Shown here: positions 6,350 to 63,796 of the stretch, in pieces | How the letters are laid out: the number at the start of each line of letters is the position of its first letter | Numbering within the stretch: position 1 is the stretch's first letter | Notes under the pieces: generated by a model | Databases searched by the model: none | Told to the model about the DNA's origin: nothing | The model's input: only the letters and a program-made list of their open reading frames with translations | Made by a program: the position numbers and the translations under genes | Assembly: GCA_015655545.1 (NCBI GenBank) | Contig: JAATET010000071.1 | Span: forward strand, 2,526 to 66,525 | Direction of reading: 5' to 3' | Length of the DNA: 64,000 bases | Source of the DNA: Chthoniobacterales bacterium | GTDB taxonomy: Bacteria; Verrucomicrobiota; Verrucomicrobiia; Chthoniobacterales; JAATET01

Positions 6350-6955
6350 TTAAATCTTCAGGCCCAGCTCCCGCATCCGCTGCAACGCGGCGTCATGATT
6401 GCGAAAATCATAGACGATTCCGCGCAATCCGGCCGCCTCGGCCGCGACGATATTTTCTTCGAGATCGTCGATATAAAGCGTCCGCGCGGGATCGACTCCG
6501 AACTGCGCGAGCGCGATATCGTAAATGCGCGCCCCAGGTTTCAGCACGCCCGCCTGGTAGGAATAGACTCCGTCGCGAAAGGTCGAGAAGACGGGATATT
6601 CGCGAAAAATGAACTCGTGGTGAATGCACGAGATATTTGAGAGCAGGTAAGTCGGCATTCCGCTCGCGGCGAGAGCGGCGGCGAGGCGGGAGAGCGGTTC
6701 GTTTTCCTCGAAAATATCCTCCCACATCGCGATGAAATCCGCGTCCGGACCCGTATGCGAAAATTCCGGCCGCACGAGCCGCAGAAACTCGGCCCGATCG
6801 ATTTTCCCGCCCTCCAGGGCCGCCTTCGCCACCACGATGCGCTCGCGATCCGGCTGCTCGGTCAGCCCGTTGTGCTCCATCAAACGGCGGGCGGCGATGA
6901 GATAGTCAAACTTGAGAAGGACGTTCCCGATGTCGAAAATAACGGCGTTGATCAT
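6350..6955 (-). CDS. HAD-superfamily hydrolase (subfamily IA-like)
   Basis: The ATG at 6955 gives 'MINAVIFDIGNVLL' (DxG/DxD-type HAD motif I). Also 'LLSN' and the 'YIDDLEEN' motif IV. The longer ORF to 7279 is an Arg/Gly-rich extension that overlaps the upstream gene. Confidence 0.75.
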   Translation of the reverse strand: MINAVIFDIGNVLLKFDYLIAARRLMEHNGLTEQPDRERIVVAKAALEGGKIDRAEFLRLVRPEFSHTGPDADFIAMWEDIFEENEPLSRLAAALAASGMPTYLLSNISCIHHEFIFREYPVFSTFRDGVYSYQAGVLKPGARIYDIALAQFGVDPARTLYIDDLEENIVAAEAAGLRGIVYDFRNHDAALQRMRELGLKI

Positions 6956-10045: not shown

Positions 10046-10818
10046 GATTTTGGAATCCATTCCGGAAACCACAGGATGATCACCAGCGGAGCCAGGTTGA
10101 AGAGCATGTGCATGACGATCGGTGTCCAGAGCGACCCGGTGATTTCGTAGGCCAGGGTGAATCCGATCGCGAGAATGACGAGCGCGGGCATGGCGGGAAG
10201 ATTGTGATGCACGGCGGCGAAGAGCAGCGCGCTGGTGAACATGGCCGCCACCCGGCCGCCGTATTTTTTGGTCACCCCGTAGAGGTAGCCCCGGAAAACC
10301 AATTCCTCGGTGAGCGGCGCCACGACCACGGCGAGGACGACCGTCCAGGCGGTGTCCGAGGCGGAGAGTCGTCCGCGCAGGAACTGCACCATTTCATCGC
10401 CATCGCTCGCCGAGTATCCGAAATGCGACACGATTTGCTCCGTCAGCTGCACCAGCGGATAAGTCAGAACAATGCCGACGAAGCCAAGGGCGAGGGCGCG
10501 CCACGGCTGCGCGGGCGCGAGGCCGAATGCCCGTTGCGGAGTTTGCCCGCGCGCAAAGACGAGCGCGGAAAAAAGGGCGAAAATGATCAAGTAAGCCAGG
10601 ATTCCGCCCCGGATATCTTCCTGCGTGATGGCGATCCTTTTTCCGTCGTCCGCAAAAATTCCGAAGATGAAATACAAGGCCAATGCGGCCGCAAAAATCG
10701 CATCGCCCACGTGCCATTCCCCGGCCGGAGCCTGCCCGCCGGGGAAGCGCGGCGTTCGGCGCAGCAGCCACCACCAGCCGGCGAGGCCGGCGATGCACCA
10801 GGCGATTAGAACGAACAC
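10042..10818 (-). CDS. CPBP-family intramembrane metalloprotease (CAAX protease-like)
   Basis: Multi-TM protein with 'PLTEELVFRGYLYG' (EExxxR) and 'FAAVH' motifs. Confidence 0.75.
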   Translation of the reverse strand: MFVLIAWCIAGLAGWWWLLRRTPRFPGGQAPAGEWHVGDAIFAAALALYFIFGIFADDGKRIAITQEDIRGGILAYLIIFALFSALVFARGQTPQRAFGLAPAQPWRALALGFVGIVLTYPLVQLTEQIVSHFGYSASDGDEMVQFLRGRLSASDTAWTVVLAVVVAPLTEELVFRGYLYGVTKKYGGRVAAMFTSALLFAAVHHNLPAMPALVILAIGFTLAYEITGSLWTPIVMHMLFNLAPLVIILWFPEWIPKS

Positions 10819-10821
10819 ACG

Positions 10822-11823
10822 CTAGGGGGCGAAAAACGGAGGCAGCAGATAAAGGCGGCCGGGTTTAAGCTGCGGCATTTGCTGCAGGAGGTCGATTTGC
10901 ACGTTGGCTTTCGCCTGCGACGACTGGCCGAGGAACTGGAAAAAATTCGAAAACGTGAACGACCGCTTGTAGAGCACGACCGCGGCGCGCGGAGCATCGC
11001 CGAGTTTGCGGGCCTTGGCATAGGCATCCTCGACGTAGCCGAGCTGGTCGACCAGTTTCGCCTGCAACGCATCCGTGCCGCTCAGGATGCGCCCGTCGGC
11101 CACGCCGTCGCGCAACGCCGCCTCATCGAGCTTGCGCGCCTTCGCCACGATGCCGACGAAGCGGCCGTAGCTCTGCATCACGAGACCCTCGACATAGGCT
11201 TGCTCCTCGGGCGTCATCTCGCGCGCGCCGTTGAGCAGATCCTTGAACTTCCCGCTTTTGAAGACGACGGACTGCAAGCCGATTTTCCCGAAAAGCTCGC
11301 GGTAGTTCAGCGTGGAAATGATCACGCCGATGCTGCCGGTGAAGGTCGTGTCGTTGCACATCACCCAGCTCGCGCCGCACGCCGCGTAATAGGCGCCCGA
11401 CGCGCCAATGCTGTTCATGAAATACACGACCGGCTTGTGCCGCGCGAAACGCTGGATCTCGTGATAGATCGCATCCGAGGCCGTCACCTCCCCGCCTGGA
11501 GAATCCACGGTCATCACCACCGCCTTGATGGAGGGATCTTCCTCCGCTTGCCGGAATGCCGCTTTGAGATCGTCCACGAGCGATTCTCCGAGCGCACCGG
11601 CCGCGCCGAAGGAAATGATGCCTTCGAGCGGAATCACCGCGATCTTCCCGGGACCATCGCCATTCACGAGAATCTGCTCCTCGAATTTTTTGGGCCGCTC
11701 GATTTTGACGCCGTGCGAAATGGTTTTTTGGAACCCCATGCCCAGCAGCAGCGTGCCGTTCACAAAAATGCTCACGCACAACGCCAGGAAAAGCGCGACA
11801 ATCGCGCAGCCCGATTTCTTCAT
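10822..11823 (-). CDS. sppA: Signal peptide peptidase SppA (36K type)
   Basis: 'SPGGEVTASDAIYHEI' and 'GASGAYYAACGA...TFTGSIGV' are ClpP/crotonase-fold SppA motifs. The ATG at 11823 gives 'MKKSGCAIVALFLALCV' (TM anchor). An ATG at 11844 is also possible. Confidence 0.8.
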   Translation of the reverse strand: MKKSGCAIVALFLALCVSIFVNGTLLLGMGFQKTISHGVKIERPKKFEEQILVNGDGPGKIAVIPLEGIISFGAAGALGESLVDDLKAAFRQAEEDPSIKAVVMTVDSPGGEVTASDAIYHEIQRFARHKPVVYFMNSIGASGAYYAACGASWVMCNDTTFTGSIGVIISTLNYRELFGKIGLQSVVFKSGKFKDLLNGAREMTPEEQAYVEGLVMQSYGRFVGIVAKARKLDEAALRDGVADGRILSGTDALQAKLVDQLGYVEDAYAKARKLGDAPRAAVVLYKRSFTFSNFFQFLGQSSQAKANVQIDLLQQMPQLKPGRLYLLPPFFAP

Positions 11824-11910
11824 AGAAAGCAAACGCTGCCGCATTTGGAGGCCCGCCACAAGGCGGGATTGCCGGGAGGAACGACCCCGCAGCCTTGCGA
11901 TGTGCACGGC

Positions 11911-11980
11911 CTGTGAATAACCTGCGAGCAATTCCGCGCGCTCTCTGAAAATTGTTCACAGGAGAGCTGCGAATAACCTG
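11911..11980. repeat. Two copies of a 14-nt direct repeat, CTG(T/C)GAATAACCTG, 56 nt apart in the sppA/rsmA divergent intergenic region
   Basis: 'ctgtgaataacctg' at 11911-11924 and 'ctgcgaataacctg' at 11967-11980, read directly from the sequence. Confidence 0.5.
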
Positions 11981-40118: not shown

Positions 40119-40448
40119 TCAGGGCGTCTTGTGTTCCAGCGCCTGCAATCGTTCGTCAATTTGAATGCTTGCCGCGGTCAGCCCTTTGGCAATTTCAAGC
40201 AGGTTATTCTCGGCCCGTCGCCCGGCTTCGGCATCCTTCCTCGCTAGCACCGCCTGGTGTTTCACTTGCGCCTCGAGTTGACGCAACTCCTCCCGCAGCC
40301 GGGCGTCGGCACCCCGCAGCCGCTGGAGGGATCTCTCCTCGAACTCGCGGAGAGCTTTTAAAACCAACCCGCGCCCGAGAGCCGCGGCGACGATCAGCGT
40401 GAGGACATTTATCGAGACGGCGATGAGAATCGTCACCAATGGACTCAC
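40119..40448 (-). CDS. Small N-terminal TM + coiled-coil protein (module copy A)
   Basis: The GTG at 40448 (GTGA overlap) gives 'VSPLVTILIAVSINVLTLIVAAAL' (TM). A heptad-like Arg/Glu/Leu-rich region follows, ending 'IDERLQALEHK'. The architecture and tail resemble 45006..45308. Confidence 0.55.
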   Translation of the reverse strand: MSPLVTILIAVSINVLTLIVAAALGRGLVLKALREFEERSLQRLRGADARLREELRQLEAQVKHQAVLARKDAEAGRRAENNLLEIAKGLTAASIQIDERLQALEHKTP

Positions 40449-41293
40449 GAGTTCGCCTCCGTTTCCGAATAAAAATGGCGGGCGACTTTGGATCGCGCGG
40501 AACGGGCGGCCGCATCCGCGCGGACGGCGATTTTTTCGAGAAACATCCGATAAAGCGCCGCGTAGGCTTTCACCCCGCCATCGTTTGCACGCCCGTCTTC
40601 GAGCATGAGCGGCGGACCGACTTCCGTTTCCAGACCGGAGCCCGAGAGCCAGGCCTGCGTCGCCGGCACGAATACGCGAGACACATCCTCCAGCCGCATC
40701 AGGAGCACTTTCGCGGCGCCCCGCTCGTGGATTTCATACGCGCGCGCGCGGGGAAATGGCTGCGCGAAAACGTCGACCCCAAACACTCCGCTCATCTCGC
40801 GATCAAACCATTCGTCGAACAGATCCCTGGGATATTCGCGGATAAAAACATTCACCAGATCATCGGCCAGCGCCCCCAACTCCTCGCCCCCGACCGCATC
40901 GCGAGACTTTTTCCGAGTCAGCACTCGACGACAAATCGCGCGCGTCTTCTCGGGAATCCGGTGAATCCAGTAAACGTGCAGATTTTGAAAAAATGCGGAG
41001 AGATCGCGCTGGAGAGGATCGCGCACGAGGCAAAGCACAAACCAACGCGCCGCGGAAAAATCCCCACCAAACCGTCGGCGCAGTTCGATGCTGCCGGACA
41101 AATGATCGGGAAATTTGCAGCGGGGCGCCTCGGGGCGATCGAGCCACCAAGCCATCCCATTCAACACGCCGCCTTCGCTGAGAGCGTGGGTCTGGTAGAT
41201 TTTTCGCGTCGGAAATCGCCGTTGCAGCGCACTGGCCACGCTGGTCGAACCGACCTTGCCGATTTGATGAACGCAAATAACCGCCGGCTTCAT
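40445..41293 (-). CDS. Sulfotransferase-fold protein, family-2-like (module copy A)
   Basis: The ATG at 41293 (ATGA overlap) gives 'MKPAVICVHQIGKVGSTSV' (PKxGGTS-like 5'-PSB loop). Also 'LCLVRDPLQRDLSAFF' (RDPxxRxxS 3'-PB-like). It is a clear paralog of 48435..49337. Confidence 0.6.
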   Translation of the reverse strand: MKPAVICVHQIGKVGSTSVASALQRRFPTRKIYQTHALSEGGVLNGMAWWLDRPEAPRCKFPDHLSGSIELRRRFGGDFSAARWFVLCLVRDPLQRDLSAFFQNLHVYWIHRIPEKTRAICRRVLTRKKSRDAVGGEELGALADDLVNVFIREYPRDLFDEWFDREMSGVFGVDVFAQPFPRARAYEIHERGAAKVLLMRLEDVSRVFVPATQAWLSGSGLETEVGPPLMLEDGRANDGGVKAYAALYRMFLEKIAVRADAAARSARSKVARHFYSETEANS

Positions 41294-41787
41294 TCGTGGG
41301 CCGGCGCGCCCACGTCGCGGAGCACCGGAAGGGGGCGCAGATTCGGGATGTGATCGTGGCGCGGAACGAACGAACGCGACTTCATGCTGAGGTTGCTGAA
41401 ATGCACGGCACCGGCCGTTTCCCATCCGGGACGCCCAAACTCCGCGCAGCCTTCGGCCTGCTCGAACATCCAGGTGTTTTTCGTCACGATCATCATGTCG
41501 GAGACATGCTGCTTTCCTTGCAAACGGTCGTCGGACATCACTTCGTAAGCTGCAAACAGCCGCGCGACGCGGTCGTATTCCGCCGCGGTGCCACTCACGA
41601 GACAAGGGACGCTCCGCTCGTAAAGCGCAAGATTGCCGACCGGACGCGGACGGAAGCTATAGTTGATCACATCGTAGTCGCACATGAACCCGCCGCCCGC
41701 CTGCGCGACGGCCAGCCAGCGGACGTAGCAATAGTAATCGAGCTTCTTGCGATTGATGCTGGGCAGCGCGCGGTAAGCGAGGAGCAT
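41290..41787 (-). CDS. Fragment 3/3 of the split Maf-like transferase: C-terminal half of a GT32-like domain
   Basis: 'KKLDYYCYVRWLAVAQAGGGFMCDYDVINYSF' matches the GT32/Caps_synth 'D..R..L...GG.Y.D.D' pattern. It is in the same frame as 41797..42621, separated only by TAA + 9 nt. Confidence 0.5.
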   Translation of the reverse strand: MLLAYRALPSINRKKLDYYCYVRWLAVAQAGGGFMCDYDVINYSFRPRPVGNLALYERSVPCLVSGTAAEYDRVARLFAAYEVMSDDRLQGKQHVSDMMIVTKNTWMFEQAEGCAEFGRPGWETAGAVHFSNLSMKSRSFVPRHDHIPNLRPLPVLRDVGAPAHE

Positions 41788-41796
41788 TTTGGTGAC

Positions 41797-42621
41797 TTAC
41801 TCATCAATCTGCACGGAGGATTCGTCGAGCACGATGGCCTCCCAGCCGTTTGCGGTCCAGCTGGCCTTCCAGAGATCGACCAGCGCCGCCTCGTGCTCGG
41901 GGATCTTGCCGTGGATCGGTGCGCAGAAGGTATAAACGACCGGGCGCGGCGGAAGCGCCGGCGGCAGATCGTTCGTCGAATCGCGCCGCGAAAGCGCGGG
42001 CACGTGCGAGGTGGTGATGTTGCGAAAAATGCGTCCGTCCTGCTCCCCCTGGCGCATGAGCAGCTCGAGAGTCGCGCAATGCTGATCGTAATAATCGGTG
42101 TAGCTGATTTTGAAAAATCCGGGATGCGCTTCCTTCGCGTCGTCCATTTTATCGGCGATCTGCGATGGGCCGTGATGGCTCCAAAAATATGTCTGCGCCT
42201 TGTCCGAACGGCCATCGCAGCCGCCCACGCAAATTTCACGGGCCAGCGTGGAGGCGACCGGGAGCATGAGCATGGTGAGAATGTTTCCCGTCTGGTTGGC
42301 GCTGAAATTCGACATCAGATCGAAGTTGAAACGTCCCAGTTTATGAATCGGAATGCCAATGATCCGCTTCAGGAGCTCCGCGGGAAAATGCGCGGCATAG
42401 TAGGGATAATGCGTGATGGGCACGATCGCGTAGAGCGGGTAGCGCATCATCGCATCGACGAGATTGCGCCGGAACTCGGCGGCATAGCGCGAGCAGCCGG
42501 CGTGGAAAACCGGATCCCCGCAGCAGACGATGGACGGCTGGATTTTATCCATGAGCCGCGTGTTGCGCACGAGGCTGTTGGAGACCACGCGCACACCGTC
42601 GAGCAGATGCGCGTCGGCCAC
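41797..42621 (-). CDS. Fragment 2/3 of the split Maf-like transferase: rest of the DUF115 domain + N-terminal half of a GT32-like domain
   Basis: Starts at a GTG 3 nt after an in-frame TAG. 'DPVFHAGCSRYAAEFRRNL', 'NILTMLMLPVASTLAREICVGGCDGR' and 'HPGFFKISYTDYYDQHC' align with 45313..48438. The C-terminal 'VVYTFCAPIHGKIPEHEAALVDLWKASWTANGWEAIVLDE' is GT32-N-like. Confidence 0.5.
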   Translation of the reverse strand: MADAHLLDGVRVVSNSLVRNTRLMDKIQPSIVCCGDPVFHAGCSRYAAEFRRNLVDAMMRYPLYAIVPITHYPYYAAHFPAELLKRIIGIPIHKLGRFNFDLMSNFSANQTGNILTMLMLPVASTLAREICVGGCDGRSDKAQTYFWSHHGPSQIADKMDDAKEAHPGFFKISYTDYYDQHCATLELLMRQGEQDGRIFRNITTSHVPALSRRDSTNDLPPALPPRPVVYTFCAPIHGKIPEHEAALVDLWKASWTANGWEAIVLDESSVQIDE

Positions 42622-42624
42622 CTG

Positions 42625-43341
42625 CTAGAGCGAGGGACCGGTGCCGAAAACGTAGGCGCGCGGCGAGTTTCCCAGCGTTTTTGCCATCGCGATGAATTTT
42701 TCCCGGCATTGCGCGACAACGGCCGAGCGGCAGGCGCCCAACAATCGCGGGACGTCGAGCCAGGTCGAAGCTTCTCTCGCATAGGTTTGGCGGTCGACAT
42801 TGAAGAAGGTCCGTCCACCGCGCCGAAACACTCCGTAGTTCGAAAGCTGAGCGGGCGGATCCCATAAACGGGAGTCCCAGACGAGCACGATGTCGGCATC
42901 GGCGATCACTCCGCGTTCGTCATCGAGACTTCCGATTTCGCGAAATTCGAAGAGCGGGAGAAGTTGCCGCCGGCACTGCGCGGTTTCCTCGTCGAGATAA
43001 GGCGGGAGATCGCGCTCTCCCGGCCCGATGCCGACCGCCACGGGAAAGATAATGCCGCGGATTTTTTCGACGACCGGGCTGAGATACCAGCTCGATCGAT
43101 AAACCAGATCCGCCAAGACCGCGGCATCGGAAATCGCCGGCAGGAACGTAACCGTGACCGCCCGCTTCCCGCCCAAGGCCGCAATCGCCGGAGCCATGAC
43201 GCCATTCCGCGGCGCAAATGTAAACACCCTCTCCGCGAGGGAAATAAGCCTGGCGTGTTTCGGGAGATAGTCTCGGGTTCGAGTCATAGAATGGTGGCGA
43301 TCTGAATCGGGCATGGTGTCCCACGCGAGCTGGAAATCCAA
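42625..43341 (-). CDS. Fragment 1/3 of the split Maf-like transferase: N-terminal region ending in the 'GTGPSL' glycine-rich motif
   Basis: Ends 'RAYVFGTGPSL*', exactly where the paralog continues 'AYCLATGPSLAAFKETNFDG'. The start is uncertain (TTG 43341, ATG 43314 or ATG 43287). Confidence 0.5.
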   Translation of the reverse strand: MDFQLAWDTMPDSDRHHSMTRTRDYLPKHARLISLAERVFTFAPRNGVMAPAIAALGGKRAVTVTFLPAISDAAVLADLVYRSSWYLSPVVEKIRGIIFPVAVGIGPGERDLPPYLDEETAQCRRQLLPLFEFREIGSLDDERGVIADADIVLVWDSRLWDPPAQLSNYGVFRRGGRTFFNVDRQTYAREASTWLDVPRLLGACRSAVVAQCREKFIAMAKTLGNSPRAYVFGTGPSL

Positions 43342-44085: not shown

Positions 44086-44198
44086 GATGGAAATGAAGGA
44101 GCGATCAAGCCGCCCCGGGCTCGGACAACCAAAGCGAGCGGCGAGCGCCGAAGACAGCTTTTTTCGACCGAGTCGTCAAATGGCTTCCGATCCGGAAA

Positions 44199-44984
44199 TC
44201 AGGCCGCGGGAGAGGCGCCGCGTTTTTGATAGATTTGCGTTTCCCATTCGGCGGCGAGGAGGCCGAAGCCGTCGAAGGCCGCGGCTGGAGGATTTGCGGC
44301 GCCGTGGGTCACGAGCAACCCGCCCTCTTTTATGGAACCGAGCAACGAAACCGGCGCGCGCGCGAAAGCATCCGCCGAGGTAATGATCAAAACATCCAAC
44401 GGCCCCATGCCGGTCGATTCGCCCGACACTTCCGAAATCGTGATCTCGCGGGGCGATCCGGAAAAAACGCGGCGCAGCATCGCCGCGCGCGACTCGGCCG
44501 CCGCTCCCGTCACGCCGACGGAAAGACGACGATCCAGCCGCCAGGACAGGGCGATGGCTTCGGCCACCAGATCGGGCATCGCCGCATCGATGTAGTTTCC
44601 TTCGAGAATTTCAGCGCGCTCGATCGCCCGGGCCCACTTCTCGATTTGTCCGCTTTCGAGCTTCCCTCCGAACATGGCGGCCCAATCCCCCAGCGCGGAC
44701 AGATCCAGTTCGCTCAGCCGACTCCGCGGCCCGGGGGACAAAAGCTCGCCGTAACGTCGGGCGGCATTTTCCTGCAGACGCACGAATCCGAGATGCAGCC
44801 GCCGCAACTGCGCATCCGTCGTGCTGCGCTCGATGCCGAGCTTGATCACGGCGACAGCACGTTCGATTTCGATTTGCCGGCGTTCGATATTGTCGAACTG
44901 CCGCCCCAGCCGTCGGCGGGTAATGACCAGCATTACGCCGGTAAAAAGCGCACTGACAAAAATGGAGGAAATAAAGACGAGCAT
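44199..44984 (-). CDS. TM + coiled-coil protein with a possible degenerate Rossmann/methyltransferase-like C-terminal region
   Basis: 'MLVFISSIFVSALFTGVMLVI' (TM), then 'IERRQIEIERAVAVIKLGIERS'. The C-terminal 'LDVLIITSADAF....LGSIKEGGLLVTHG' is only loosely MTase-like. Confidence 0.5.
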   Translation of the reverse strand: MLVFISSIFVSALFTGVMLVITRRRLGRQFDNIERRQIEIERAVAVIKLGIERSTTDAQLRRLHLGFVRLQENAARRYGELLSPGPRSRLSELDLSALGDWAAMFGGKLESGQIEKWARAIERAEILEGNYIDAAMPDLVAEAIALSWRLDRRLSVGVTGAAAESRAAMLRRVFSGSPREITISEVSGESTGMGPLDVLIITSADAFARAPVSLLGSIKEGGLLVTHGAANPPAAAFDGFGLLAAEWETQIYQKRGASPAA

Positions 44985-45312: not shown

Positions 45313-48300
45313 CTATTTCCAAATGGTAAGTCGCCCGCGATGCGCGCCGGGAAAAACTTCGCGCAATTCCTCCATGCGATGGCGGAAAAATTGCCCGACT
45401 TGATAGCGCACGTTTAACCGCCGGAGCGCCGCGAGCCAAGCTTTCAGCCAATTCCCGATGCGGGCGGAAATGCTCGCCGGATCGGCTCCCGATGCGCGCG
45501 CGGCGGAATGCGCGTCAATCGCCGCGGAATAGGCCTTGCGCAGGCGAATCACCGCCGCCGGAGCGCCGCGTCGCACTCGGATCAATGCCGGATCGAGCAA
45601 AATAAGCACCCCCGGCTGGGCGGGCGGAATGTCCTCTCCGGCCGACACCTCACAAAGCACGCGATATTCTCCGGGGCCGTTTTTCCCGAGTGGAAAATAG
45701 CGTCCGCTCCACACCGCCCGCAGGCCATCGAGGTGGCGAAGCCGATCCAGAATCATCGTCCGCTCCGCATCCGTGCCGTCACAGAAAACCAGTGTCGCCG
45801 CCGTCCGCAGGGGCAGCACTTCCACGCCCCGGATATCGCGGGCGCGGCAAAGCACGACGGCCACCGCATCCTTTCCGAAAGTCGGCATCAACGTCGAAAA
45901 ATGACGACTCGCCCCGGCGAGCGCCGGGCACGCCACGGCCTTCCATTCGCGATTCATGAATTTTTCGAGCCAATCCGACGGAATATCGCCGAAAGCCACG
46001 GCGACTCGAGCCGCCGCTTCCTCGCGGAAGAACCGCGCGGCGACTTCGCAATCATCGACCTCACGACGATCCAGCCGCGTGTAGGGACCGAGCAAAGTCG
46101 GCCGGGAAGACAAAGGCCGCCGCGCCCCATCGAGCCGCGAAACGAGCTGTTGAAATAATTGCCGCGAGGCGTCCGCGCCGAGCTCGCCGAGAGCGCGTTC
46201 GCGCGCGGCCAGCGCCTTTTCTCGAAACACCTCCGGCGACGCAGCCAGCCGGCGCAGTTCGCTTTTCAGCAAGTCCGCCTCCGGCCGATCCACGACGATC
46301 GCCGCGCCCAGTTCCCGCGCCCGCCTTACGGTGGCGATGGTTTCCGGACCGAACACCAGCAGAGGCACGCCCGACGCAAGGCATTCAGGCAATTTGTTGG
46401 CCATCGAGAATTGCGTGTAAACGCGCGTGCGCTCATCGAAATTGTAGGCAATCAGCAGCGCGCCGGCCGTCGAAAGCAGCTTCGGATATTCCGACCACTC
46501 CACGGACGGAAGGACTTCGACCCCGCGAAGCCCGTTGAATTTTTCCCGCGCGACTTTGAACGCGGCCGGCAGCGCGCAGACCTCGAATCGGATCGGCAAC
46601 TCATCGCCAAGCTCGGCCACCGCGCGCGCGACCATCTCGACGCTCGCCAGCGTCATGTCCTCGGTGAGCCCGCCGCAATACCGGATGACCAGCGGCTCGC
46701 CCGGCTGTCGGCCGGAAGGCAGGCCGGTCCATTCCGACGGATCGATCCCATTGGCGACGGCCACGAAATCCTGCCCATAGCGTTCGCGATACGCATCACT
46801 CATCGCATCGGAAATGCTCAGCCGCACCGCGGATTGTCGCAGCAGGGCACACAGCGTCGGCTCGATGCGCGCGAAGCTTTCGGGATTTTCCATCCGCAGT
46901 CGCTCCGGCCAGTCGTCCATGATGTGCGTCACCACCGGCACGCCCGATCGCCGCACGATCTCCCAGCCCAGCTCCAAAAACTCGGGCGGGCTATCCGTCG
47001 GACGAAAATAAATCAGCTGCGGAGCGAAATCCGCACATTCCCGGAGCACGTCGTCGCGCGTAAGTTTCGCGCCCGGGAAATCCGGATGCGCTTCCTGGCT
47101 GTGCAGGCGAAAATACGATCCGTCCCTCGTGCTGAGCGGGCGGATTTGCAGGACTTTTTTCGCGGGCCATTTCTGGAAAAGCGTCGCCTTCAGCTGGCCC
47201 GTGGCATTGCGCGCGCCGATCTCGGTGAAGTCGATCACCAGCATGCGCGGCAAGTTCGCGGGGCGGCTCGACAGCGCCGGAATGAACGAGGGCGTGACGG
47301 TGCCGTATTCGCGCCCCATTTTCTCGCCGTCGTGAATCAGCTCCTCGAGCTGGCGGCAGTGGTCGAGATAGTAATCGTTGTAATCGATCGCGAAGAATCC
47401 GGGATGCACGAGCCGGATGGTTTCCATCTGGTCGTTGATCTGCGTCGTTTTGTTGTGCTGCCAGAAGTAGCCGCTCTCGTCGAGCGGACGCCCGTCGCAG
47501 CCGAGCAGATAAATTTTCCGCGCCAGCGTCGAAGCCACCGGGAGCATGAGATAGGTGAGGATGTTCGCCGTGGTGTAGACGCGAAATTCCGCCGCGAGAT
47601 CGAGATTGAAGCCGTTCGGCTTGTCGGACGGAATGCCGATCGTCCGCGCTTGCAGCTCCGGCATCGCGTCGGTCAGCAGGCCGTGATAACGCATCGGCAC
47701 AATGATCGTGTAGTCGTGCCGCACGCAGGATTCCCGCAGCTTTCGGCGGAATTCCGCCGCGTAGTTCGACGGTCCGTAATGGAATATCGGATCGGCAAAA
47801 ACCAGAAAGCGCGGGCGCACCCAATCCATCAATTCCTCGTCCAAAATCGCGCTGTTGCAGACGATGGAAAGCGCGCCGTCGAAATTGGTCTCCTTGAACG
47901 CGGCCAATGACGGGCCGGTCGCCAGGCAATAGGCCGTTTCGAATTGCCCGTATTCTTCCAGCAGCCGCCCGAAGCGAATGCGCGATTGTTCGATTTCGGC
48001 CTCGCGATCGGCCCGAAGTTGAAAATTCAATTCGACCCAGTTGCCGAATTCCTGCCTCGTGCGCACAGGATCGCCGCGGAGGATTTTTTTCCGGCTCAAC
48101 GCCTCCGTCCATTCTTCCTCCGTGAGAATGTCCCATTGCGGCGGATCCTCGACGAAGACCACGAAGTCGGTGATTACCAGGCGCTCGACAATTTCTTCCT
48201 TCGTCGGGACGGGAACAAATCGGACGCGGGGGCGCAGAGCTGGGAAATTGGCCGCGATGGCGGGATCCATGAGCACGGGCACCTTCCACTCGACATCCGC

Positions 48301-48438
48301 AAGCGTCGGACTCTCGAGATAAATCGTGCAATCGTGGAACGACGCCAGGCCGATGCCCCAGGCCATGCGGGCGATCAGATCGTGCAACTCCTCCTCGCTG
48401 CGGATCAGCGGCAGGATCGTGATGCGGCTTTCCTTCAC
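45313..48438 (-). CDS. 1041-aa multidomain transferase: unknown N-domain + DUF115/MptE-like (Maf-like) domain + GT-B (GT4-like) domain + unknown C-domain
   Basis: The GTG at 48438 forms GTGA with the upstream stop (the ATG at 48483 would overlap by 49 nt). DUF115-like 'CLATGPSLAAF...IVCNSAIL...PRFLVFADP...LLGCDG'. GT-B 'LLIAYNFDERTRVYTQFSMANKLPECLASGVPLLVFG'. I did not recognise the last ~265 aa. Confidence 0.7.
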   Translation of the reverse strand: MKESRITILPLIRSEEELHDLIARMAWGIGLASFHDCTIYLESPTLADVEWKVPVLMDPAIAANFPALRPRVRFVPVPTKEEIVERLVITDFVVFVEDPPQWDILTEEEWTEALSRKKILRGDPVRTRQEFGNWVELNFQLRADREAEIEQSRIRFGRLLEEYGQFETAYCLATGPSLAAFKETNFDGALSIVCNSAILDEELMDWVRPRFLVFADPIFHYGPSNYAAEFRRKLRESCVRHDYTIIVPMRYHGLLTDAMPELQARTIGIPSDKPNGFNLDLAAEFRVYTTANILTYLMLPVASTLARKIYLLGCDGRPLDESGYFWQHNKTTQINDQMETIRLVHPGFFAIDYNDYYLDHCRQLEELIHDGEKMGREYGTVTPSFIPALSSRPANLPRMLVIDFTEIGARNATGQLKATLFQKWPAKKVLQIRPLSTRDGSYFRLHSQEAHPDFPGAKLTRDDVLRECADFAPQLIYFRPTDSPPEFLELGWEIVRRSGVPVVTHIMDDWPERLRMENPESFARIEPTLCALLRQSAVRLSISDAMSDAYRERYGQDFVAVANGIDPSEWTGLPSGRQPGEPLVIRYCGGLTEDMTLASVEMVARAVAELGDELPIRFEVCALPAAFKVAREKFNGLRGVEVLPSVEWSEYPKLLSTAGALLIAYNFDERTRVYTQFSMANKLPECLASGVPLLVFGPETIATVRRARELGAAIVVDRPEADLLKSELRRLAASPEVFREKALAARERALGELGADASRQLFQQLVSRLDGARRPLSSRPTLLGPYTRLDRREVDDCEVAARFFREEAAARVAVAFGDIPSDWLEKFMNREWKAVACPALAGASRHFSTLMPTFGKDAVAVVLCRARDIRGVEVLPLRTAATLVFCDGTDAERTMILDRLRHLDGLRAVWSGRYFPLGKNGPGEYRVLCEVSAGEDIPPAQPGVLILLDPALIRVRRGAPAAVIRLRKAYSAAIDAHSAARASGADPASISARIGNWLKAWLAALRRLNVRYQVGQFFRHRMEELREVFPGAHRGRLTIWK

Positions 48439-49337
48439 GTCGGGGAGTGTGTCATCGGCGACGCCGTTTCGGTTTTGGTCCACTTGGCCGCGAAGCGCGC
48501 GCGCTCGAGGCCGGAATAGAAATGGCGCGCGGTCCGGGAAGCGTATTCCTGCTCCACCACGGCCGGATCAAACGTCAGCTGATCCATGAATTTTCGATAA
48601 AGCAGGGCGTAGCGTTTATTGCCGGCCTCGTTCGCCCGCGGCAACTCGAGGCCGCCTCCCGCCATGAGCGCATTTTGCCATGGGGAGCCGTCGAGCCAGG
48701 CGCGGAGGCCGGGCTCGAACCCTGCGGCGAGATCCTCGATCCGGAGCAGAAGCAGGCGCACGCGTTTGTTTTGATAAAGTTGATAGCCGCGATCCGGTGC
48801 GAAGGGTTCGGCAAACACATCGATGCCGAAAACTCCACACATCTCGTCGTCGAACCAGCGATCGAGGAATTGCCGGGAGTAACGCTCGTGGAAAAGGGCG
48901 ACCAATGCCCGCGCGACCTCGTGAATTTCGTCCTCTCCCGGCACTGGCCCGGATTTTTTCCGCAGCAGGCGGCTGCAAATTTCGCGCGCTGCAGCGGGCA
49001 GACGATGCACCCAGACCAGATGGAGATTCTGGAAAAACGCGGAGACGTTGCGCCCGATCGGATCCCGAACGAGCGACAGCAAATACCAGTCGCGCTGCTC
49101 CAGGCCGCCGTGAAGATAGCCGCTCACTTCGATGCTCGAGAGCAGATTCGGCGACGGCTTGAAGCCGGGCGAACGCCGCGAGCGGTCCAGCCACCGAATG
49201 ATGGAATCGAGCATCCTGCGTTCGCTGAGTCCGTGGGTCTGATGGATTTTTTCGCCCGGCAAAAAGTGATTCAACGTCTGGAGAACGCTGGTCGAACCGA
49301 CCTTGCCGATCTGATGAATACAAATGACTGGTTTCAT
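48435..49337 (-). CDS. Sulfotransferase-fold protein, family-2-like (module copy B)
   Basis: The ATG at 49337 gives 'MKPVICIHQIGKVGSTSV'. Also 'LLSLVRDPIGRNVSAFF'. It is a paralog of 40445..41293, and a 33-nt stretch is shared with one mismatch (41239-41271 vs 49286-49318). Confidence 0.6.
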   Translation of the reverse strand: MKPVICIHQIGKVGSTSVLQTLNHFLPGEKIHQTHGLSERRMLDSIIRWLDRSRRSPGFKPSPNLLSSIEVSGYLHGGLEQRDWYLLSLVRDPIGRNVSAFFQNLHLVWVHRLPAAAREICSRLLRKKSGPVPGEDEIHEVARALVALFHERYSRQFLDRWFDDEMCGVFGIDVFAEPFAPDRGYQLYQNKRVRLLLLRIEDLAAGFEPGLRAWLDGSPWQNALMAGGGLELPRANEAGNKRYALLYRKFMDQLTFDPAVVEQEYASRTARHFYSGLERARFAAKWTKTETASPMTHSPT

Positions 49338-49389: not shown

Positions 49390-50265
49390 TCAATTTTCCG
49401 CGAGCAGCCGGCGGAGGTAAGCGCCGTAGGTGGATTTCCCGAGCCGCTCGATCTGGCGTTCCAGTCCTGCGCGGTCGATCCATTTTTGCCGGAAAGCGAT
49501 TTCTTCGAGGCAGGCAATTTTGAGGCCTTGCCGATTCTCGATGATGTGGACGAACTCCGCGGCTTCGAGCAGTGATTCATGCGTGCCGGTGTCGAGCCAG
49601 GCGATGCCGCGACCGAGCAACTCCACGCGCAAGGTGCCGCGCTCGAGATAGCGGCGGTTCAGGTCGGTGATTTCGAGCTCGCCGCGGGCCGAGGGCTGGA
49701 GCGTGCGCGCCAGGGCGGAGGCGTCGCCGTCGTAATAATAGATGCCCGGAACGGCGTAGTTCGACTTCGGCCTGGCGGGTTTTTCCTCGATGGAAAGCAC
49801 CTCGCCCGTCGGGCTGAATTCGACGACGCCGTAGGCCGCGGGATCGGAAACGAGACAGCCGAAGATCGTGGCGCCGGATTCCTGCGCGCTGGCGGCGAGC
49901 AGCGCCTTCACGAAATCGTGTCCGTAAAAAAGGTTGTCCCCGAGCACGAGAGCCGAGGGTTTTCCGGCGAGAAATTCCTCTCCGATGAGGAACGCCTGGG
50001 CGAGTCCGTCGGGCTTTTCCTGGGTCGCGTAGGAAAGGCTCAGTCCGAACTGCGACCCGTCGCCGAGCAGCTGCTGGAAGAGCGGCATGTCGTGCGGCGT
50101 CGAGATGACGAGGATCTCGCGGATGCCCGAAAGCATGAGCGCCGACAGGGGATAATAAATCATCGGCTTGTCGTAGATCGGCATGAGCTGCTTGCTCACC
50201 GCGATGGTGAGCGGATAGAGCCGCGTGCCGGTGCCGCCGGCGAGAATGATGCCTTTGCGTTCCAT
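49390..50265 (-). CDS. rfbA: Glucose-1-phosphate thymidylyltransferase
   Basis: '[38 protein letters not shown]' and 'LGDNLFYG'. The 291-aa length fits RmlA. Confidence 0.9.
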
Positions 50266-52012: not shown

Positions 52013-53650
52013 TCATCGATCGGGTTGGTTGCGCTGAAAAAGGTAGGCGAATTTGCCGGCGCCGTCCGGATACGTGCCGGCCAAATGCCAGGCGGGATCC
52101 GCACGAAAGAGCGCCAGCAATTCCGGCTGTAATTTCTCGGCGGGGATATCGTTTCCTTCCGGCCGGCCACTCAATCCGGGATCCTGCAACAAGACGTAGC
52201 TGGCGTCGCGGGTGAATCGCAGGACTTCCTCACGACGATGCGCGAGAGCGGCACTGATCATGGTGAGTTTACGATTTCGAGCCCGGAACTCGATTTCGAA
52301 ATATTGAGGCACGATCGGATTGGCCTGCGTGACCACCAGCGTCGGATCGTCGTTGGCACCCGAGGCCGCAAGCAGATCGCGGAGGACGCCGTTGTTTACC
52401 GACGTCTGAACTTTTCGTATTTTTTTCGAAACGACGCAGACCGGCGGAAACGAAAAGGCGGTCGCACAAAACGCCAGCACTACACCGGCGAAGACTGCTT
52501 GTCGCCAAAGCGGACGCAGCCATTCACGAGCCCGGGTGCATCGAAGCAGCCGCACGGCATACCACGCGGCGCCGAAGATGAGAAATCCGTAGAACGATCC
52601 TCCCAAATAGGGACTCTTCATCGAAAAAGCCGCGTTCACCACGCAAGTGCCGGCCAGCATCCATAAGAAAGCAGCCGCGCGCAGTCGGACGGCAAGCGTC
52701 TCTCCGCGGGCCAGGTCGACAAGCGATCCCGTCAAAAATATCGCCAGGAGCGGATAGAAGAAATTTCCCAGATTGGAGGCCAGTGCCTTGCCGGGAGCCA
52801 CGTAGTAGGTGAGTTGGTCCCAAAGCGAGCCGTGGAATTCCCAGACTTCGCGGTTGTCTCCGAAGCTGTTGACGAAAAAGTAATCGAAAATTTCGCGACC
52901 GTGCTGCACCCAATACCAGCCCGCCACGGCCATGGCACTCGCGATCGCAAGGGCGAGTCGAATCCCCAAGTCACGAAAGGAAACACCGCCGGTCAAGAGC
53001 GCGATCGCCGCGGAGAGAAACCACGTGCCCCCCATGACCAGCAGCGTCATGGCGAAGGTCGAAGGCTTGATGAGCAGCACCAGGCCGACTGCCACTCCAA
53101 AGGCGACCGCGAAAAGTTTCCGCTCGAAGGGCCGTTCGCTCGCGAGCAGCAGCGTGCAGCTTCCACCGAGCACCACGGCCCACATCATATCGGGCCGGAA
53201 CTGCTGCGCGCACATCGTCGCGAAAGGAAACGCCAGCGTGCCGATGACAAGAGCGGCTTTGATCAACGGCGGCAGCGACCGGGTGATAGCCGCGACGAAA
53301 GCGAGCAGGGCGAACACAACCAACGCGAGTACATAATAGGCGCGCTCGACACTGGGGCCGAAAAGCAGGAAGCCGAAGACCCCCGCGAAGACGGGAAACG
53401 GCGCGTGAAGATTCTGGGTCAGCAGCGCGCCTGCGGCCGCGACGGCGCCTTGATTCGCGCCGAGGAAATAGATTTCCGACGCCTTGTTGAAATAAACGAC
53501 ATCGTCGTAGTTCGTAATCGTCGAGAGACGGCCAATTTCTTTCGACGTCTTAAGACTCGCCGCGGTGAAAAGTGCGGCGCAGCAAAGCAAAATCAACCCT
53601 CCGGTCAACGCCGGCCCGAGATGCCAAAGACTATTTCGACAGCTGCCCAT
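52013..53650 (-). CDS. Polytopic membrane protein, GT-C-like (ArnT/PMT-family-like) putative glycosyltransferase
   Basis: About 12 hydrophobic segments. The first loop carries 'NYDDVVYFNKASE' (a DxxxY-type acidic motif as in GT-C enzymes). A ~140-aa soluble C-terminal domain follows. I prefer the ATG at 53650 over the TTG at 53668. Confidence 0.55.
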   Translation of the reverse strand: MGSCRNSLWHLGPALTGGLILLCCAALFTAASLKTSKEIGRLSTITNYDDVVYFNKASEIYFLGANQGAVAAAGALLTQNLHAPFPVFAGVFGFLLFGPSVERAYYVLALVVFALLAFVAAITRSLPPLIKAALVIGTLAFPFATMCAQQFRPDMMWAVVLGGSCTLLLASERPFERKLFAVAFGVAVGLVLLIKPSTFAMTLLVMGGTWFLSAAIALLTGGVSFRDLGIRLALAIASAMAVAGWYWVQHGREIFDYFFVNSFGDNREVWEFHGSLWDQLTYYVAPGKALASNLGNFFYPLLAIFLTGSLVDLARGETLAVRLRAAAFLWMLAGTCVVNAAFSMKSPYLGGSFYGFLIFGAAWYAVRLLRCTRAREWLRPLWRQAVFAGVVLAFCATAFSFPPVCVVSKKIRKVQTSVNNGVLRDLLAASGANDDPTLVVTQANPIVPQYFEIEFRARNRKLTMISAALAHRREEVLRFTRDASYVLLQDPGLSGRPEGNDIPAEKLQPELLALFRADPAWHLAGTYPDGAGKFAYLFQRNQPDR

Positions 53651-53684
53651 GAGGAGGTTCCGCGACAATCGACACCGCAGGCCT

Positions 53685-61193: not shown

Positions 61194-62510
61194 TCAGACA
61201 GGATGTGCGGCCTCTTCCCTGGTGGTCGCACCAATGGCTTTTCCGGTGAACTGAAGCTCCGCCCGCCACCGCTTCTCACGATCCGGCATTTTGAGATGGC
61301 CGTACACTTCGGAATTCTGCGCGCGCCGGCTCCACAACACCGACGCCCCGTCCCAAGTCTCCAAGCTTCGACGATATTCCCAAAGCTCCGAGAACAACTC
61401 GAAAAAACGGGAGGCCTCCGTCGGATCCTTTCCAAACTCTGCCACCACTTCATCGACCGAAGGAAGGTGCACATCGATCCCTAGCAGCCAGGGAATAAGC
61501 ACGCTCGAGTAAGACCCGACAGGCGTCAGAACCGACCGAAACCCATAGCGCCTGAGCACCACCTCGAGCGGCAAATGGCTGATCGCAAGCTCGGTTTCTT
61601 TCTGGAAAAGGAAGGCCTCTCCTCCAAAATTCAGACGATTGAGACGCCGCACCACCTCCGCCGCCTGCCCGGCAGTCTCCCGAGGGTGCGGCTTCACGTA
61701 GACGCGATCCACCCCGCCCAGGTGCGGCAATGCCAGACCCACCACCAGACGAACCTCGTCTTCAAAGGACAGCATGCGTGCCTCGGTATAAGTGGAAGTC
61801 AGAAGCAACGCGGCGTTTTCGGACTTCGTCGACGCTGCTCCAGGAGACGACTCAGCGGGGATGTTCGCCGCGGCACTCTCGATGATCCGCAGATAGTAGC
61901 GCCGGGGAATGATCGTCAACTCAGTGCTGACCGACGTCATCGAGCTCTCATCGTCGAGCAGAATGTGAAAATCGGGCAAAACGGCGTAGGCCCTGCTGAC
62001 GTCAGCAAACGAAACCATGCGCACGGAGTCGATTTTTCCGAGCACATCCCCGCAGACGCAAACCTCCGCCTCCTCGAACGCGGCACAAACCAACTCATTC
62101 GTAAGCTGCCAGTTCCGGGCGAGATGAAGCTCGTCCAACCTCTCGATTCCGACCCGCCGGCGAATCTCGGCGATCACCTCCGAGAAATCCGCGGCGGGAT
62201 TTTGCCAAAGCGCATCTTCCAGATCGTAGGCATCCACGATGCGGCTCCACGTTTTCGATTGGGAAAGAATGCCCGCCGCCAAGGCAATTCCGCTGTTCCT
62301 GCCGAAGGCATACTTCCCGAAGAGAAGGCAGATATTGATTCCCTCCTGCCCTTCCTCCTCATTTTCCCCGAGATACTGCGCGACGGTCTCACACATGAGC
62401 AGCTGGGCGGGACCCTGCGCAACAAAGAGCCGGAAGACCGCATCCTTTTGACGACTTCGCTCCGCGCCGTACCCGCGCAACCGCCGCCAGACCTTTTTCA
62501 AGACACCCAT
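61194..62510 (-). CDS. Putative sialyl/nonulosonyl-transferase-like GT-B protein (HP-motif)
   Basis: The ATG at 62510 gives 'MGVLKKVW'. 'VDRVYVKPHPRE' (H-P motif context), a downstream 'PVGSYSSVLIP' (SS-type phosphate-binding-like) and an N-terminal acidic 'NEEEGQEG'. It lies next to the CMP-sugar genes. The assignment is tentative. Confidence 0.4.
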   Translation of the reverse strand: MGVLKKVWRRLRGYGAERSRQKDAVFRLFVAQGPAQLLMCETVAQYLGENEEEGQEGINICLLFGKYAFGRNSGIALAAGILSQSKTWSRIVDAYDLEDALWQNPAADFSEVIAEIRRRVGIERLDELHLARNWQLTNELVCAAFEEAEVCVCGDVLGKIDSVRMVSFADVSRAYAVLPDFHILLDDESSMTSVSTELTIIPRRYYLRIIESAAANIPAESSPGAASTKSENAALLLTSTYTEARMLSFEDEVRLVVGLALPHLGGVDRVYVKPHPRETAGQAAEVVRRLNRLNFGGEAFLFQKETELAISHLPLEVVLRRYGFRSVLTPVGSYSSVLIPWLLGIDVHLPSVDEVVAEFGKDPTEASRFFELFSELWEYRRSLETWDGASVLWSRRAQNSEVYGHLKMPDREKRWRAELQFTGKAIGATTREEAAHPV

Positions 62511-62557
62511 TTGGCATTCCCCACCGGTCTTTCCCGGAGCGGACTCGACATGCTTTC

Positions 62558-63796
62558 TCAACTCCCGCCCGGAATAAAAAAATCCAGACCTCGATCCCTC
62601 AGAATTTGCTCGGCAAATTCCCTCACCGCCCCGTTTCCGCCACCTTTGCTGCAAATATAATGGGCACGTGCCGCCACATCCGCAACCGCGTCGCTCGGGC
62701 AGCACGCCAGTCCAACCGCCTCGAGCACAGGGATATCCGCCAAGTCGTCACCGATGTAGGCCACCTCATCCAGGGTGACATTTGCTTCCGCGGAAATTCT
62801 GCCCAACTCCAGCATCTTGTCCACCGCACCCTGTGCGAGATAATTTACCTTCAACTTCGCCGCGCGGCGCTCCACGATCTTCGTGTCTTCCACGGTAATA
62901 ATGCCCGTAAGAATGCCTGCCAGTCGCAGCAATTCGATGCCCTTCCCGTCGCGGGTGTTGAATTTTTTGATCTCGTCCCCGCATTCCGAATAATACATTC
63001 CCGCGTCCGTCAGCACCCCGTCCACATCGGTCAGAAAGAGTTTAATTTTCCCCACACGGGCGCGGAAATCGTCCGCGGAAATTCTCAGTTTCCCAAGGAG
63101 GGCGGAGCCTCCCAGCAAAGAACCGGCCTTGCTCTTTGCGAGGATCGCCTCCACCACATCCCAGTCCGACGGCTCGTCGAGCTCAAAATATGACTCTTCT
63201 CGCATTTCATAGAGGGACACCTTGCCTGGGAGCCTGCTCCCCGTGCGAAGAAGCGCCTCCCTTTCGCAAATATAAAAGGCTCCATTCTCCACATAATAGG
63301 GCTTCATCTCCTGGCGTCGCGGCCTGGAGCGCGGGTCGTAATTCCCAGATGATGCAACGCCGTCTGAATCGCGGCTCCAAATAAACCGCTTCTGCGGCAC
63401 GACGGAAAGGAGGCTATCCGCGCCGGCACGATTGAGCTCCGCCAACCCCGACGCGAGGTCCTGCGAGGTAAGCAGGGGCGAAGTGGCCTGAATGAGAACC
63501 ATTTTCCCGAATTCATGTTTGCCGGCGAATTCGAGCATCACAAACTCCGTACTGGCCGTGTCGCTGGCGGACTCGACGCTTCGCCCGGAGACAAACACCT
63601 TGGGATTGGCAAGTGCAGTGACGACTTGCGCAATCCTGTCGTCGTCCGTGCAAACATGGACTTCCTCAATTTCATCGCAGCCTGCGGCGGCCTCTATGAC
63701 CCATTGGCAAAGCGGCTTTCCGGCAAGCAGCTTAATGTTCTTGAGCGGGATGTTCTTGCTGCCGCCTCGCAGCGGAATAAAGGCAATCGTCTTCAC
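62558..63796 (-). CDS. Fusion: acylneuraminate-type cytidylyltransferase (CMP-nonulosonate synthetase) + KdsC-like HAD phosphatase
   Basis: N-terminal 'IAFIPLRGGSKNIPLKNIKLLAGKPL' (CTP_transf_3). C-terminal 'LFLTDVDGVLTD' (HAD motif I), 'KVNYLAQGAVDK' and 'YIGDDLADIPVLEAVG' (motif IV). GTG start at 63796. Confidence 0.8.
   Translation of the reverse strand: MKTIAFIPLRGGSKNIPLKNIKLLAGKPLCQWVIEAAAGCDEIEEVHVCTDDDRIAQVVTALANPKVFVSGRSVESASDTASTEFVMLEFAGKHEFGKMVLIQATSPLLTSQDLASGLAELNRAGADSLLSVVPQKRFIWSRDSDGVASSGNYDPRSRPRRQEMKPYYVENGAFYICEREALLRTGSRLPGKVSLYEMREESYFELDEPSDWDVVEAILAKSKAGSLLGGSALLGKLRISADDFRARVGKIKLFLTDVDGVLTDAGMYYSECGDEIKKFNTRDGKGIELLRLAGILTGIITVEDTKIVERRAAKLKVNYLAQGAVDKMLELGRISAEANVTLDEVAYIGDDLADIPVLEAVGLACCPSDAVADVAARAHYICSKGGGNGAVREFAEQILRDRGLDFFIPGGS

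Follow-up and report, generated by a model that had tools for sequence, protein, structure and literature searches.

Stop codons lying in frame within an otherwise conserved ORF, whose orthologues are intact, are the usual mark of a young bacterial pseudogene, and the loss of surface-polysaccharide genes is a common event, to which phages or grazing may give an advantage. Substitutions of the G:C>T:A type form the spectrum of mutM and mutY mutators, known from E. coli GO-repair genetics. Oxidation of guanine while a library is being prepared is also known to leave an exclusive C>A/G>T pattern (Costello et al. 2013, PMC3616734). On the protein side, two described groups come closest to the gene considered here: the MptE-like/DUF115 family (PF01973), that of the Maf motility accessory factors, with a GxGPS motif resembling that of GT42-type sialyltransferases, and the retaining glycosyltransferases of GT-A fold, such as GT8 (LgtC, glycogenin, LARGE1), GT6 and PBCV-1 A64R.

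In this work, we describe a gene of a Chthoniobacterales bacterium, contained in a stretch of 64,000 nucleotides (the window, meaning the whole DNA analysed), whose reading frame is interrupted twice. It shares with young pseudogenes the in-frame stops in a conserved ORF with intact orthologues, and with GO-repair mutants the type of substitution, but differs from them in that no relaxation of constraint is detectable and the changes are locally clustered, not genome-wide. The resemblance to 8-oxoG artefacts (PMC3616734) lies in six scattered differences which are all G:C>T:A, show no synonymous enrichment and are absent from another assembly; the classic artefacts, however, feature low allele fraction and read-orientation bias, while here such errors would have had to make their way into the consensus, and the codon-position-1 bias seen at this locus is no known property of such artefacts.

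Structure of the interrupted gene

The first-pass annotation, made from the letters of the DNA alone, had described three ORFs lying in one frame and separated by single TAG and TAA codons, with no frameshifts and with GTG or ATG codons within 3-9 nt after the stops. Translation bears this out: the minus-strand frame 43341..41290 can be read without frameshift and contains exactly two internal stops, a TAG at codon 221 (42627-42625, minus strand), between the residues GTGPSL and QVAD, and a TAA at codon 497 (41799-41797, minus strand), between VQIDE and VTKML; a GTG lies 3 nt past the former and an ATG 9 nt past the latter. The frame ends with a TGA at 41292-41290 (minus strand), and its true start is probably the ATG at 43287, opening a sequence (MTRTRDYLPK) conserved in orthologues, and not the TTG at 43341. 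In relatives the gene is found as one CDS of 665 codons, corresponding to 41290..43287 of the minus strand, as indicated by translation, by 12 full-length single-ORF orthologues and by an intact copy in the independently assembled contig L030 (see below); in the window, 43287..41290 is broken solely by the TAG and the TAA. Since the joined frame can be aligned over its whole length with the 12 orthologues, the split ORFs are more than a chance arrangement. What is interrupted here is an ordinary single gene, kept up by selection, whose product is a sugar-transferase-like protein of about 665 aa with three domains.

Its setting is a large surface-polysaccharide operon of a verrucomicrobium of the Chthoniobacterales/Terrimicrobiaceae type. 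The operon is a variable locus, and the genomic context includes the nonulosonic-acid genes NeuB, CMP-sugar synthetase and a polysialyltransferase-like gene. In the downstream NKWYS gene (PF10364; 40445..41293, minus strand), the ATG overlaps the TGA that ends the interrupted gene (ATGA), an arrangement pointing to an operon with translational coupling. An intact paralogue of 1056 aa, encoded at 45313..48483 (minus strand), has a GT4-type domain fused to the N-terminal and MptE-like module that it has in common with the interrupted gene. This paralogue shares 35% identity with the joined frame over 430 aa (E=8e-67), in an alignment crossing the first junction without indels; the uninterrupted reading ATGPSLAAFKE, previously noticed in the paralogue at this junction, is indeed present in the 1056-aa ORF. 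A GC3-based scan of the window for further same-frame split genes saw no other interrupted gene. The only other candidate, 10045-10818 / 10825-11931, turned out not to be a single gene but an Rce1-like one next to one for a peptidase S49.

Domain organization and placement of the stops

The protein is composed, in order, of an N-terminal alpha/beta domain, a central MptE-like (DUF115-like) domain and a C-terminal GT-A glycosyltransferase domain. The searches of Pfam with the single pieces and with the joined protein matched no model, even at E<=10, nothing useful was found in NCBIfam, and a profile search of PDB sequences for the identity of the domains found nothing.

The central domain, common to the paralogue (approximately 41968..42690, minus strand), is outlined by paralogue and family alignments and by a structure model, and contains the motifs GTGPSL, NS, DPVFH, GCDGR, YFWSHH and HPGFF. 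As in MptE-like proteins, GTGPSL follows a beta strand, and the genes nearby deal with nonulosonic acids. In contrast to them, none of the family members reaches the Pfam gathering score for PF01973, which was matched below threshold in 17 of the 49 (best E 0.0013) and gave no hit with the protein studied here; similarly, Foldseek comparison of the full-length model with the PDB returned nothing significant. The central domain may tentatively be taken as a distant, sub-threshold relative of MptE-like/DUF115 proteins. The TAG falls inside a beta-loop-alpha unit of this domain, modelled with pLDDT >90, where the helix coming after the beta-strand and the GTGPS loop begins. The earlier placement of this stop right after the glycine-rich motif of a Maf-like DUF115 domain is correct as to the loop, while the family assignment holds at sub-threshold level only.

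The C-terminal domain (approximately 41323..41943, minus strand), which carries a DYD motif, is outlined by an AF2 model, Foldseek and homologues. These number about 45 and are mostly single ORFs of 203-222 aa; standalone proteins of this type measure 205-220 aa, one example being encoded at 5995-6633 of contig L005. The AF2 model of the domain (pLDDT 95) matches LARGE1, GT8, GT6 and PBCV-1 A64R structures of the PDB with E from 7e-5 to 1e-3 and probability up to 1.00, sequence identity being 7-15% and TM-scores about 0.5. The residues D88-Y89-D90 are invariant, and the DYD lies after a GGGF segment, as in retaining GT-A glycosyltransferases, from which the domain differs by this low identity and by the lack of any Pfam hit. 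For GT32 in particular (Gly_transf_sug, PF04488), neither the C-terminal piece nor the joined protein nor P0001 gave a Pfam hit. The structural comparison supports a predicted GT-A fold class with a DxD motif, family membership apart; of the previous "GT32-like" label, the fold and the motif can be retained, and the family name has no Pfam match. The TAA falls at residue 48 of this domain of about 210 aa, after beta1-alpha1-beta2 and before the DYD motif.

The protein joins two domain families that Pfam does not cover, one being a distant MptE-like module and the other a small GT-A domain; each is widespread in polysaccharide loci of Verrucomicrobiota.

Conservation in related genomes

All 12 orthologues are single proteins, 634-677 aa long, with 59-85% identity. 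In 11 of them the position of the TAG is occupied by E, and at the DNA level this site reads GAG in 7 out of 7 orthologues; the second site reads GAA, GAG or GAC in the same number of sequences. Relatives hold codons for Glu, Asp or Ala at the stop positions, and the check for sense codons in relatives, which the first-pass annotation had suggested, gave sense codons at both stops in all 7 orthologue DNAs. The GTG past the TAG corresponds to a conserved Val/Ile position of the intact protein (ATC in some orthologues), and the ATG past the TAA to an invariant Met.

Each of the three pieces has a pairwise dN/dS of 0.07-0.14, as is also found between orthologues. Terminal-branch dN/dS is uninformative, since the dS separating the window copy from the nearest diverged orthologue is about 1, and saturated; changes at orthologue-invariant columns were used in its place as a measure of decay. 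None of the 281 invariant columns is altered in the window copy; by the same measure, in a leave-one-out analysis, each orthologue differs at 2-6 columns and the most distant one at 58. With about 620 nonsynonymous sites at invariant codons, a neutral phase would be confined to an estimated divergence of roughly 0.5% at most. Neither frameshifts nor indels are found in the window copy with respect to the orthologues and L030, and the gene shows no decay beyond the two stops. Signs of relaxed selection, such as an excess of nonsynonymous changes at conserved sites or further lesions, were not found in this copy, which fits only a very recent event.

Comparison with a near-identical assembly

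Three contigs from SRR10968246, a plant-associated metagenome, match 27.3 kb of the 64-kb window, the part covered by the comparison, at >99.95% identity. The matches span 49674-39470 (5 mismatches in 10,205 bp), 64000-50165 (5 in 13,836 bp) and 39499-36217 (none in 3,283 bp), all without gaps. Three exact protein look-ups gave matches; those of pieces 2 and 3 and of six other window ORFs gave no match in the protein collection, a probable cause being that start calls or residues differ, and the three pieces are absent among homologue hits.

In the Logan contig L030 (99.95% identity over 10.2 kb) the two sites read GAG and GAA, respectively, and the gene is unbroken, being called as one ORF (6478-8385) from a downstream ATG. 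The TAG corresponds to a single G>T change at window position 42627 (GAG>TAG), the TAA to a single G>T at 41799 (GAA>TAA). The stops are derived, private to the window assembly and of one mutational type. Given the Glu codons in the near-identical assembly and in relatives, they represent either base-call errors or brand-new mutations, and not an evolved gene design.

Altogether, ten differences separate the window from the SRR10968246 contigs: a cluster of four and six scattered singletons. The cluster (62037-62061) is made of third-position changes, all synonymous and of mixed type, and is ordinary strain variation; it shows that the haplotypes behind the two assemblies are not entirely identical. 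The singletons are, without exception, G:C>T:A, with the window holding T or A. Besides the two stops, they include a G>T at 44594, producing D131Y in a 261-aa gene (44199-44984) at a site which is D, D, E, E and D in five relatives; a C>A at 44191, in the intergenic region between this gene and a GT2 gene; a C>A at 45471, producing L1005I at a variable site of the 1056-aa paralogue; and a C>A at 53245, producing L142I in the gene at 52013-53668 (all on the minus strand).

A span of 3,672 bp contains five of the six singletons (P=0.007 by simulation). The five coding ones comprise two nonsense and three missense changes and no synonymous one, and all affect codon position 1 (P ~0.005), a restriction for which simple random damage is no explanation. 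Nonsense changes, 2 out of 5 among coding G:C>T:A changes and both in one gene, somewhat exceed random expectation at P ~0.04, a value inflated by the finding having been picked because of its stops. Inspection of the contexts of the six G>T sites revealed no shared sequence motif, the CTCGAG of site 1 not being repeated at the others. As a whole, the singleton differences look unselected.

Discussion

Four explanations had been put forward from the sequence: a young pseudogene, a sequencing or assembly error, a fission into re-initiated subunits and a stop-codon readthrough. The former two survive the present analysis, in which orthologues and the 99.95%-identical assembly show Glu codons at both positions; the latter two are contradicted, as detailed below. 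In choosing between an error and a real recent mutation, we infer, with modest confidence, that the stops are errors of the consensus or of base calling, of the kind caused by guanine oxidation (8-oxoG). Both G>T stops belong to a small, local G:C>T:A cluster unfiltered by selection; as expected of artefacts, the spectrum is exclusive (6/6 singletons) and the changes are missing from an independent, near-identical assembly. Against this reading, oxidation artefacts usually have a low allele fraction, and are seldom carried into a consensus except at very low coverage; a thinly covered, strain-variable polysaccharide locus is where they could have got into the assembly. A distinctly less probable explanation is that of a very young pseudogene, the G>T changes being real in the sampled strain or sub-population, as a result, for example, of oxidative damage or of a MutY/MutM-type repair defect; a surface-polysaccharide transferase would then be lost, with probable polarity on the coupled NKWYS gene. 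The stops are indeed in frame in an ORF intact in orthologues, and derived with respect to these and to L030; the locus is a variable polysaccharide operon, and the four synonymous differences attest real strain variation between the assemblies. Two hits in one gene, with nonsense changes above random expectation, would be in keeping with a loss of function under relaxed or positive selection. The second stop, moreover, is neutral once the first exists. A genome-wide mutator, however, should scatter its changes, while five of the six fall within 3.7 kb, and no invariant column testifies to relaxed constraint. A pure G:C>T:A spectrum, devoid of transitions, is moreover unusual for natural polymorphism, and a damage-type spectrum without synonymous changes, equally expected of artefacts, gives a pseudogene no advantage.

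The remaining explanations have far less in their favour. All six G:C>T:A changes might be real and reflect a local burst of oxidative-type mutagenesis in the polysaccharide locus, by which a double nonsense silenced the transferase in one sub-lineage; we regard this as improbable, and it would demand a mechanistic cause for the restriction of the five coding changes to codon position 1. It is just as doubtful that TAG and TAA belong to different haplotypes, merged by the assembler into a chimeric consensus, with positive selection for inactivation of the gene: both assemblies derive from metagenome-type data and the nonsense excess lies in one gene, but the exclusive G:C>T:A type of the neighbouring, non-nonsense differences would be left unexplained. 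A functional fission, with three pieces translated by termination and re-initiation at the GTG and the ATG and assembling into an active enzyme, is very hard to credit. The start codons found close to the stops, and the purifying selection that pairwise dN/dS indicates for all three pieces, would speak for it; the low dN/dS, however, records the history of a long branch (dS ~1) and not the time since the split, and the supposed restart codons are ordinary, conserved internal codons. The split, besides, is shared by no relative (12 protein orthologues and 7 orthologue DNAs) nor by the 99.95%-identical genome, and both cuts lie inside folded domains, not at their boundaries. The same very low probability applies to programmed readthrough, suppression or reassignment, with TAG and TAA decoded, for example, by a Glu suppressor tRNA, or acting as the "expression valve" initially imagined. 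Both stops replace Glu and both are UAR, which one ochre-type suppressor might read; a first-position G>T, however, turns the codons of no amino acid but Glu into UAA or UAG. Furthermore, TAG and TAA end 4 and 2, respectively, of 26 neighbouring gene calls as normal terminators, no tRNA genes were found within the window, and the stops are conserved in no relative, the near-identical genome included.

These results call for caution, as triplets of same-frame ORFs with nearby start codons can mimic fission or recoding, an appearance dissolved here by a near-identical assembly. Annotations should keep 43287..41290 together as a single gene, or else mark it as possibly a pseudogene or a stretch of low quality, and the 41.8-45.5 kb portion of the window assembly should be regarded as bearing errors of the G>T type. 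If the stops are indeed consensus errors, the organism would make the full-length protein, and the "three ORFs" would be an artefact. If they are real, a polysaccharide transferase would have been knocked out privately in one strain, which is nothing out of the ordinary; should a local mutagenesis burst have taken place, the cell surface would be varied in an on/off manner by damage, perhaps with selection acting on it.

Results

Translation of the minus-strand frame from 43341 to 41290 confirmed the split described in the first-pass annotation: the frame is unbroken, with no frameshift, except for exactly two internal stops, a TAG at 42627-42625 (site 1, between AYVFGTGPSL and QVADA) and a TAA at 41799-41797 (site 2, between SSVQIDE and VTKML). 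At 41292-41290 the frame ends in TGA, which shares an ATGA overlap with the start codon (ATG) of the following gene. The start-type codons reported beyond the stops are also in place, GTG 3 nt past the TAG and ATG 9 nt past the TAA. The gene probably starts at ATG 43287, since MTRTRDYLPK is conserved in orthologues. As had been claimed, the intact paralogue, a 1056-aa ORF at 45313..48483(-), is uninterrupted at junction 1, across which it aligns without indels to the joined frame, i.e. the three pieces read through both stops (35% identity over 430 residues).

Searches with the joined protein retrieved 12 orthologues from Chthoniobacterales/Terrimicrobiaceae-type MAGs and metagenomes, 59-85% identical and each a single protein of 634-677 aa. 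The TAG column holds Glu in 11 and Ala in one, the TAA column mostly Glu, with Asp in some. Whether orthologous genes carry sense codons at both positions, a question raised by the first-pass annotation, was answered in the affirmative at DNA level: in all seven examined, site 1 is GAG and site 2 is GAA, GAG or GAC. From the Glu codons of relatives, each stop is thus one first-position G>T step away. The two stops aside, the window copy differs from the orthologues at none of 281 invariant columns and has no indels; in a leave-one-out comparison, each orthologue differs at 2-6 such columns, the most distant one at 58. Judged by this alignment, any neutral phase must have been extremely short. 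Pairwise dN/dS is 0.07-0.14 in each of the three pieces, the same as between orthologues, a value which, with dS around 1, reflects long-term history only.

An exact-match search of the Logan assemblies for the neighbouring GT2 protein led to a contig from SRR10968246, a run which bioRxiv 10.1101/2025.04.20.649691 describes as plant-associated metagenome data. This contig aligns to window positions 49674-39470 over 10,205 bp, gap-free and with 5 mismatches; it reads GAG at site 1 and GAA at site 2, and gene calling on it gives a single ORF for the gene. A second contig covers 64000-50165 (5 mismatches in 13,836 bp) and a third, identical, 39499-36217. The contigs break within an RmlA-type nucleotidyltransferase gene (49390-50265), presumably a conserved gene common to strains or species in the sample, and 490 bp (49675-50164) fall outside the comparison.

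Ten differences were found over 27,294 bp. Four of them (C>T, C>T, C>G, G>A), all synonymous third-position changes, are clustered within 25 bp, at 62037-62061, in a polysialyltransferase-like gene, 61194-62705(-). By its sequence, the cluster resembles ordinary, genuine variation between strains or a short tract of recombination, and it shows that the haplotypes of the two assemblies differ. The remaining six are scattered singletons, all G:C>T:A, with T/A always on the window side: the two Glu-to-stop changes at 41799 and 42627 in the minus-strand gene, an intergenic one at 44191, D131Y at 44594 (D/D/E/E/D in relatives), L1005I at 45471 and L142I at 53245. Five of the six lie within 3,672 bp (simulation P=0.007). 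None is synonymous, against the 29% expected if G:C>T:A changes struck this coding sequence at random. The five coding ones all affect the first position of their codons, for which the expected share is 35% (P about 0.005), and no common sequence context was found among them.

In the AF2 model of the orthologue P0001, residues ~40-440 are confident (pLDDT >90), and the TAG corresponds to codon 221, at a helix start just after a beta strand and the GTGPS loop. The C-terminal ~210 residues belong to a separate family, usually standalone proteins of 205-220 aa, and their model (pLDDT 95) has the fold of GT-A glycosyltransferases, with similarity to LARGE1, GT8, GT6 and PBCV-1 A64R; the TAA falls at residue 48 of this domain, past beta1-alpha1-beta2 and ahead of the invariant DYD. 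According to these models, neither stop lies at a domain boundary. Orthologue alignment and DNA show that the "restart" codons are part of the intact protein's own sequence: one encodes an invariant Met, the other lies at a Val/Ile position.

The interrupted gene's protein had no significant match among Pfam or NCBIfam models. Across the wider family, the sub-threshold match seen most often is PF01973 (MptE-like, formerly DUF115; 17 of 49 members, best E 0.0013), so that the proposed DUF115/Maf-like assignment stands as a plausible distant relationship, not as membership. "GT32-like" holds at the level of a GT-A fold plus DxD motif and no further.

The ~420-aa module at 41968-43287 and 47200-48483 (-), shared by the homologues P0013-P0049, has no Pfam match above threshold. 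It comprises an N-terminal alpha/beta domain and a GTGPSL / DPVFH / GCDGR / YFWSHH / HPGFF domain, and its fold, although confident (pLDDT >90), gave no significant Foldseek match in PDB. The module occurs alone or fused to GT4 (the paralogue and many relatives), GT2 (P0020/P0028) or the small GT-A domain of the interrupted gene. The latter domain, at 41323-41943(-), also found on contig L005 (5995-6633) and in P0053-P0093, represents an unannotated, mostly standalone family of Verrucomicrobiota, predicted as a minimal GT-A fold, with invariant W..W....W and GGGF.CDYD, a conserved PRH motif and no Pfam or NCBIfam model.

The gene lies within a minus-strand surface polysaccharide operon of more than 25 kb (36000-64000, continuing on contig L031, 1-5042), which contains GT2 and GT4 transferases, sulfotransferases, methyltransferases, a hexapeptide acyltransferase and RmlA. 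Nonulosonic-acid genes (NeuB, just outside the window, a CMP-sugar synthetase with a fused HAD domain, and the polysialyltransferase-like gene) lie beside two sulfotransferase-type genes and many glycosyltransferases. Each of the operon's two NKWYS genes adjoins and overlaps one MptE-like paralogue, 48435-49337(-) upstream of the intact one, overlapping its start, and 40445-41293(-) downstream of the interrupted gene, coupled by the ATGA; this arrangement points to an old duplication in which the two genes were copied as a unit.

Discussion

Four explanations had been put forward for the split frame. Fission into re-initiated subunits is contradicted, because the split is absent even from a 99.95%-identical genome and cuts folded domains. 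Stop-codon readthrough or recoding is likewise rejected, the split being unconserved and decoding showing no sign of alteration: TAG or TAA are the ordinary terminators of 6 of 26 neighbouring genes, and no tRNA genes occur within the 64-kb window.

The choice narrows to the other two, a young pseudogene or a sequencing/assembly error. With modest confidence, we favour base-call or consensus errors, because the singletons are all of one damage-type class, show no filtering by selection, cluster locally and are missing from the independent assembly. A G>T/C>A-only spectrum is the signature of guanine oxidation, a known library-preparation artefact (PMC3616734). The stops may instead be a real, very recent, strain-private double knock-out, a tentative reading to which we give clearly less weight: two of the five coding changes are nonsense, slightly above chance (P about 0.04), though this figure is biased, the locus having been picked for its stops. 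A G>T/C>A-only spectrum is also that of MutM/MutY-deficient cells. The restriction to codon position 1 is unexplained by artefact and mutation alike.

The operon content suggests that the surface polymer of this soil or plant-associated verrucomicrobium is sialic-acid-like and sulfated or methylated. The split in the gene is most likely no biological feature; if it is one, it would amount to no more than a very young, trivial pseudogene private to the strain.
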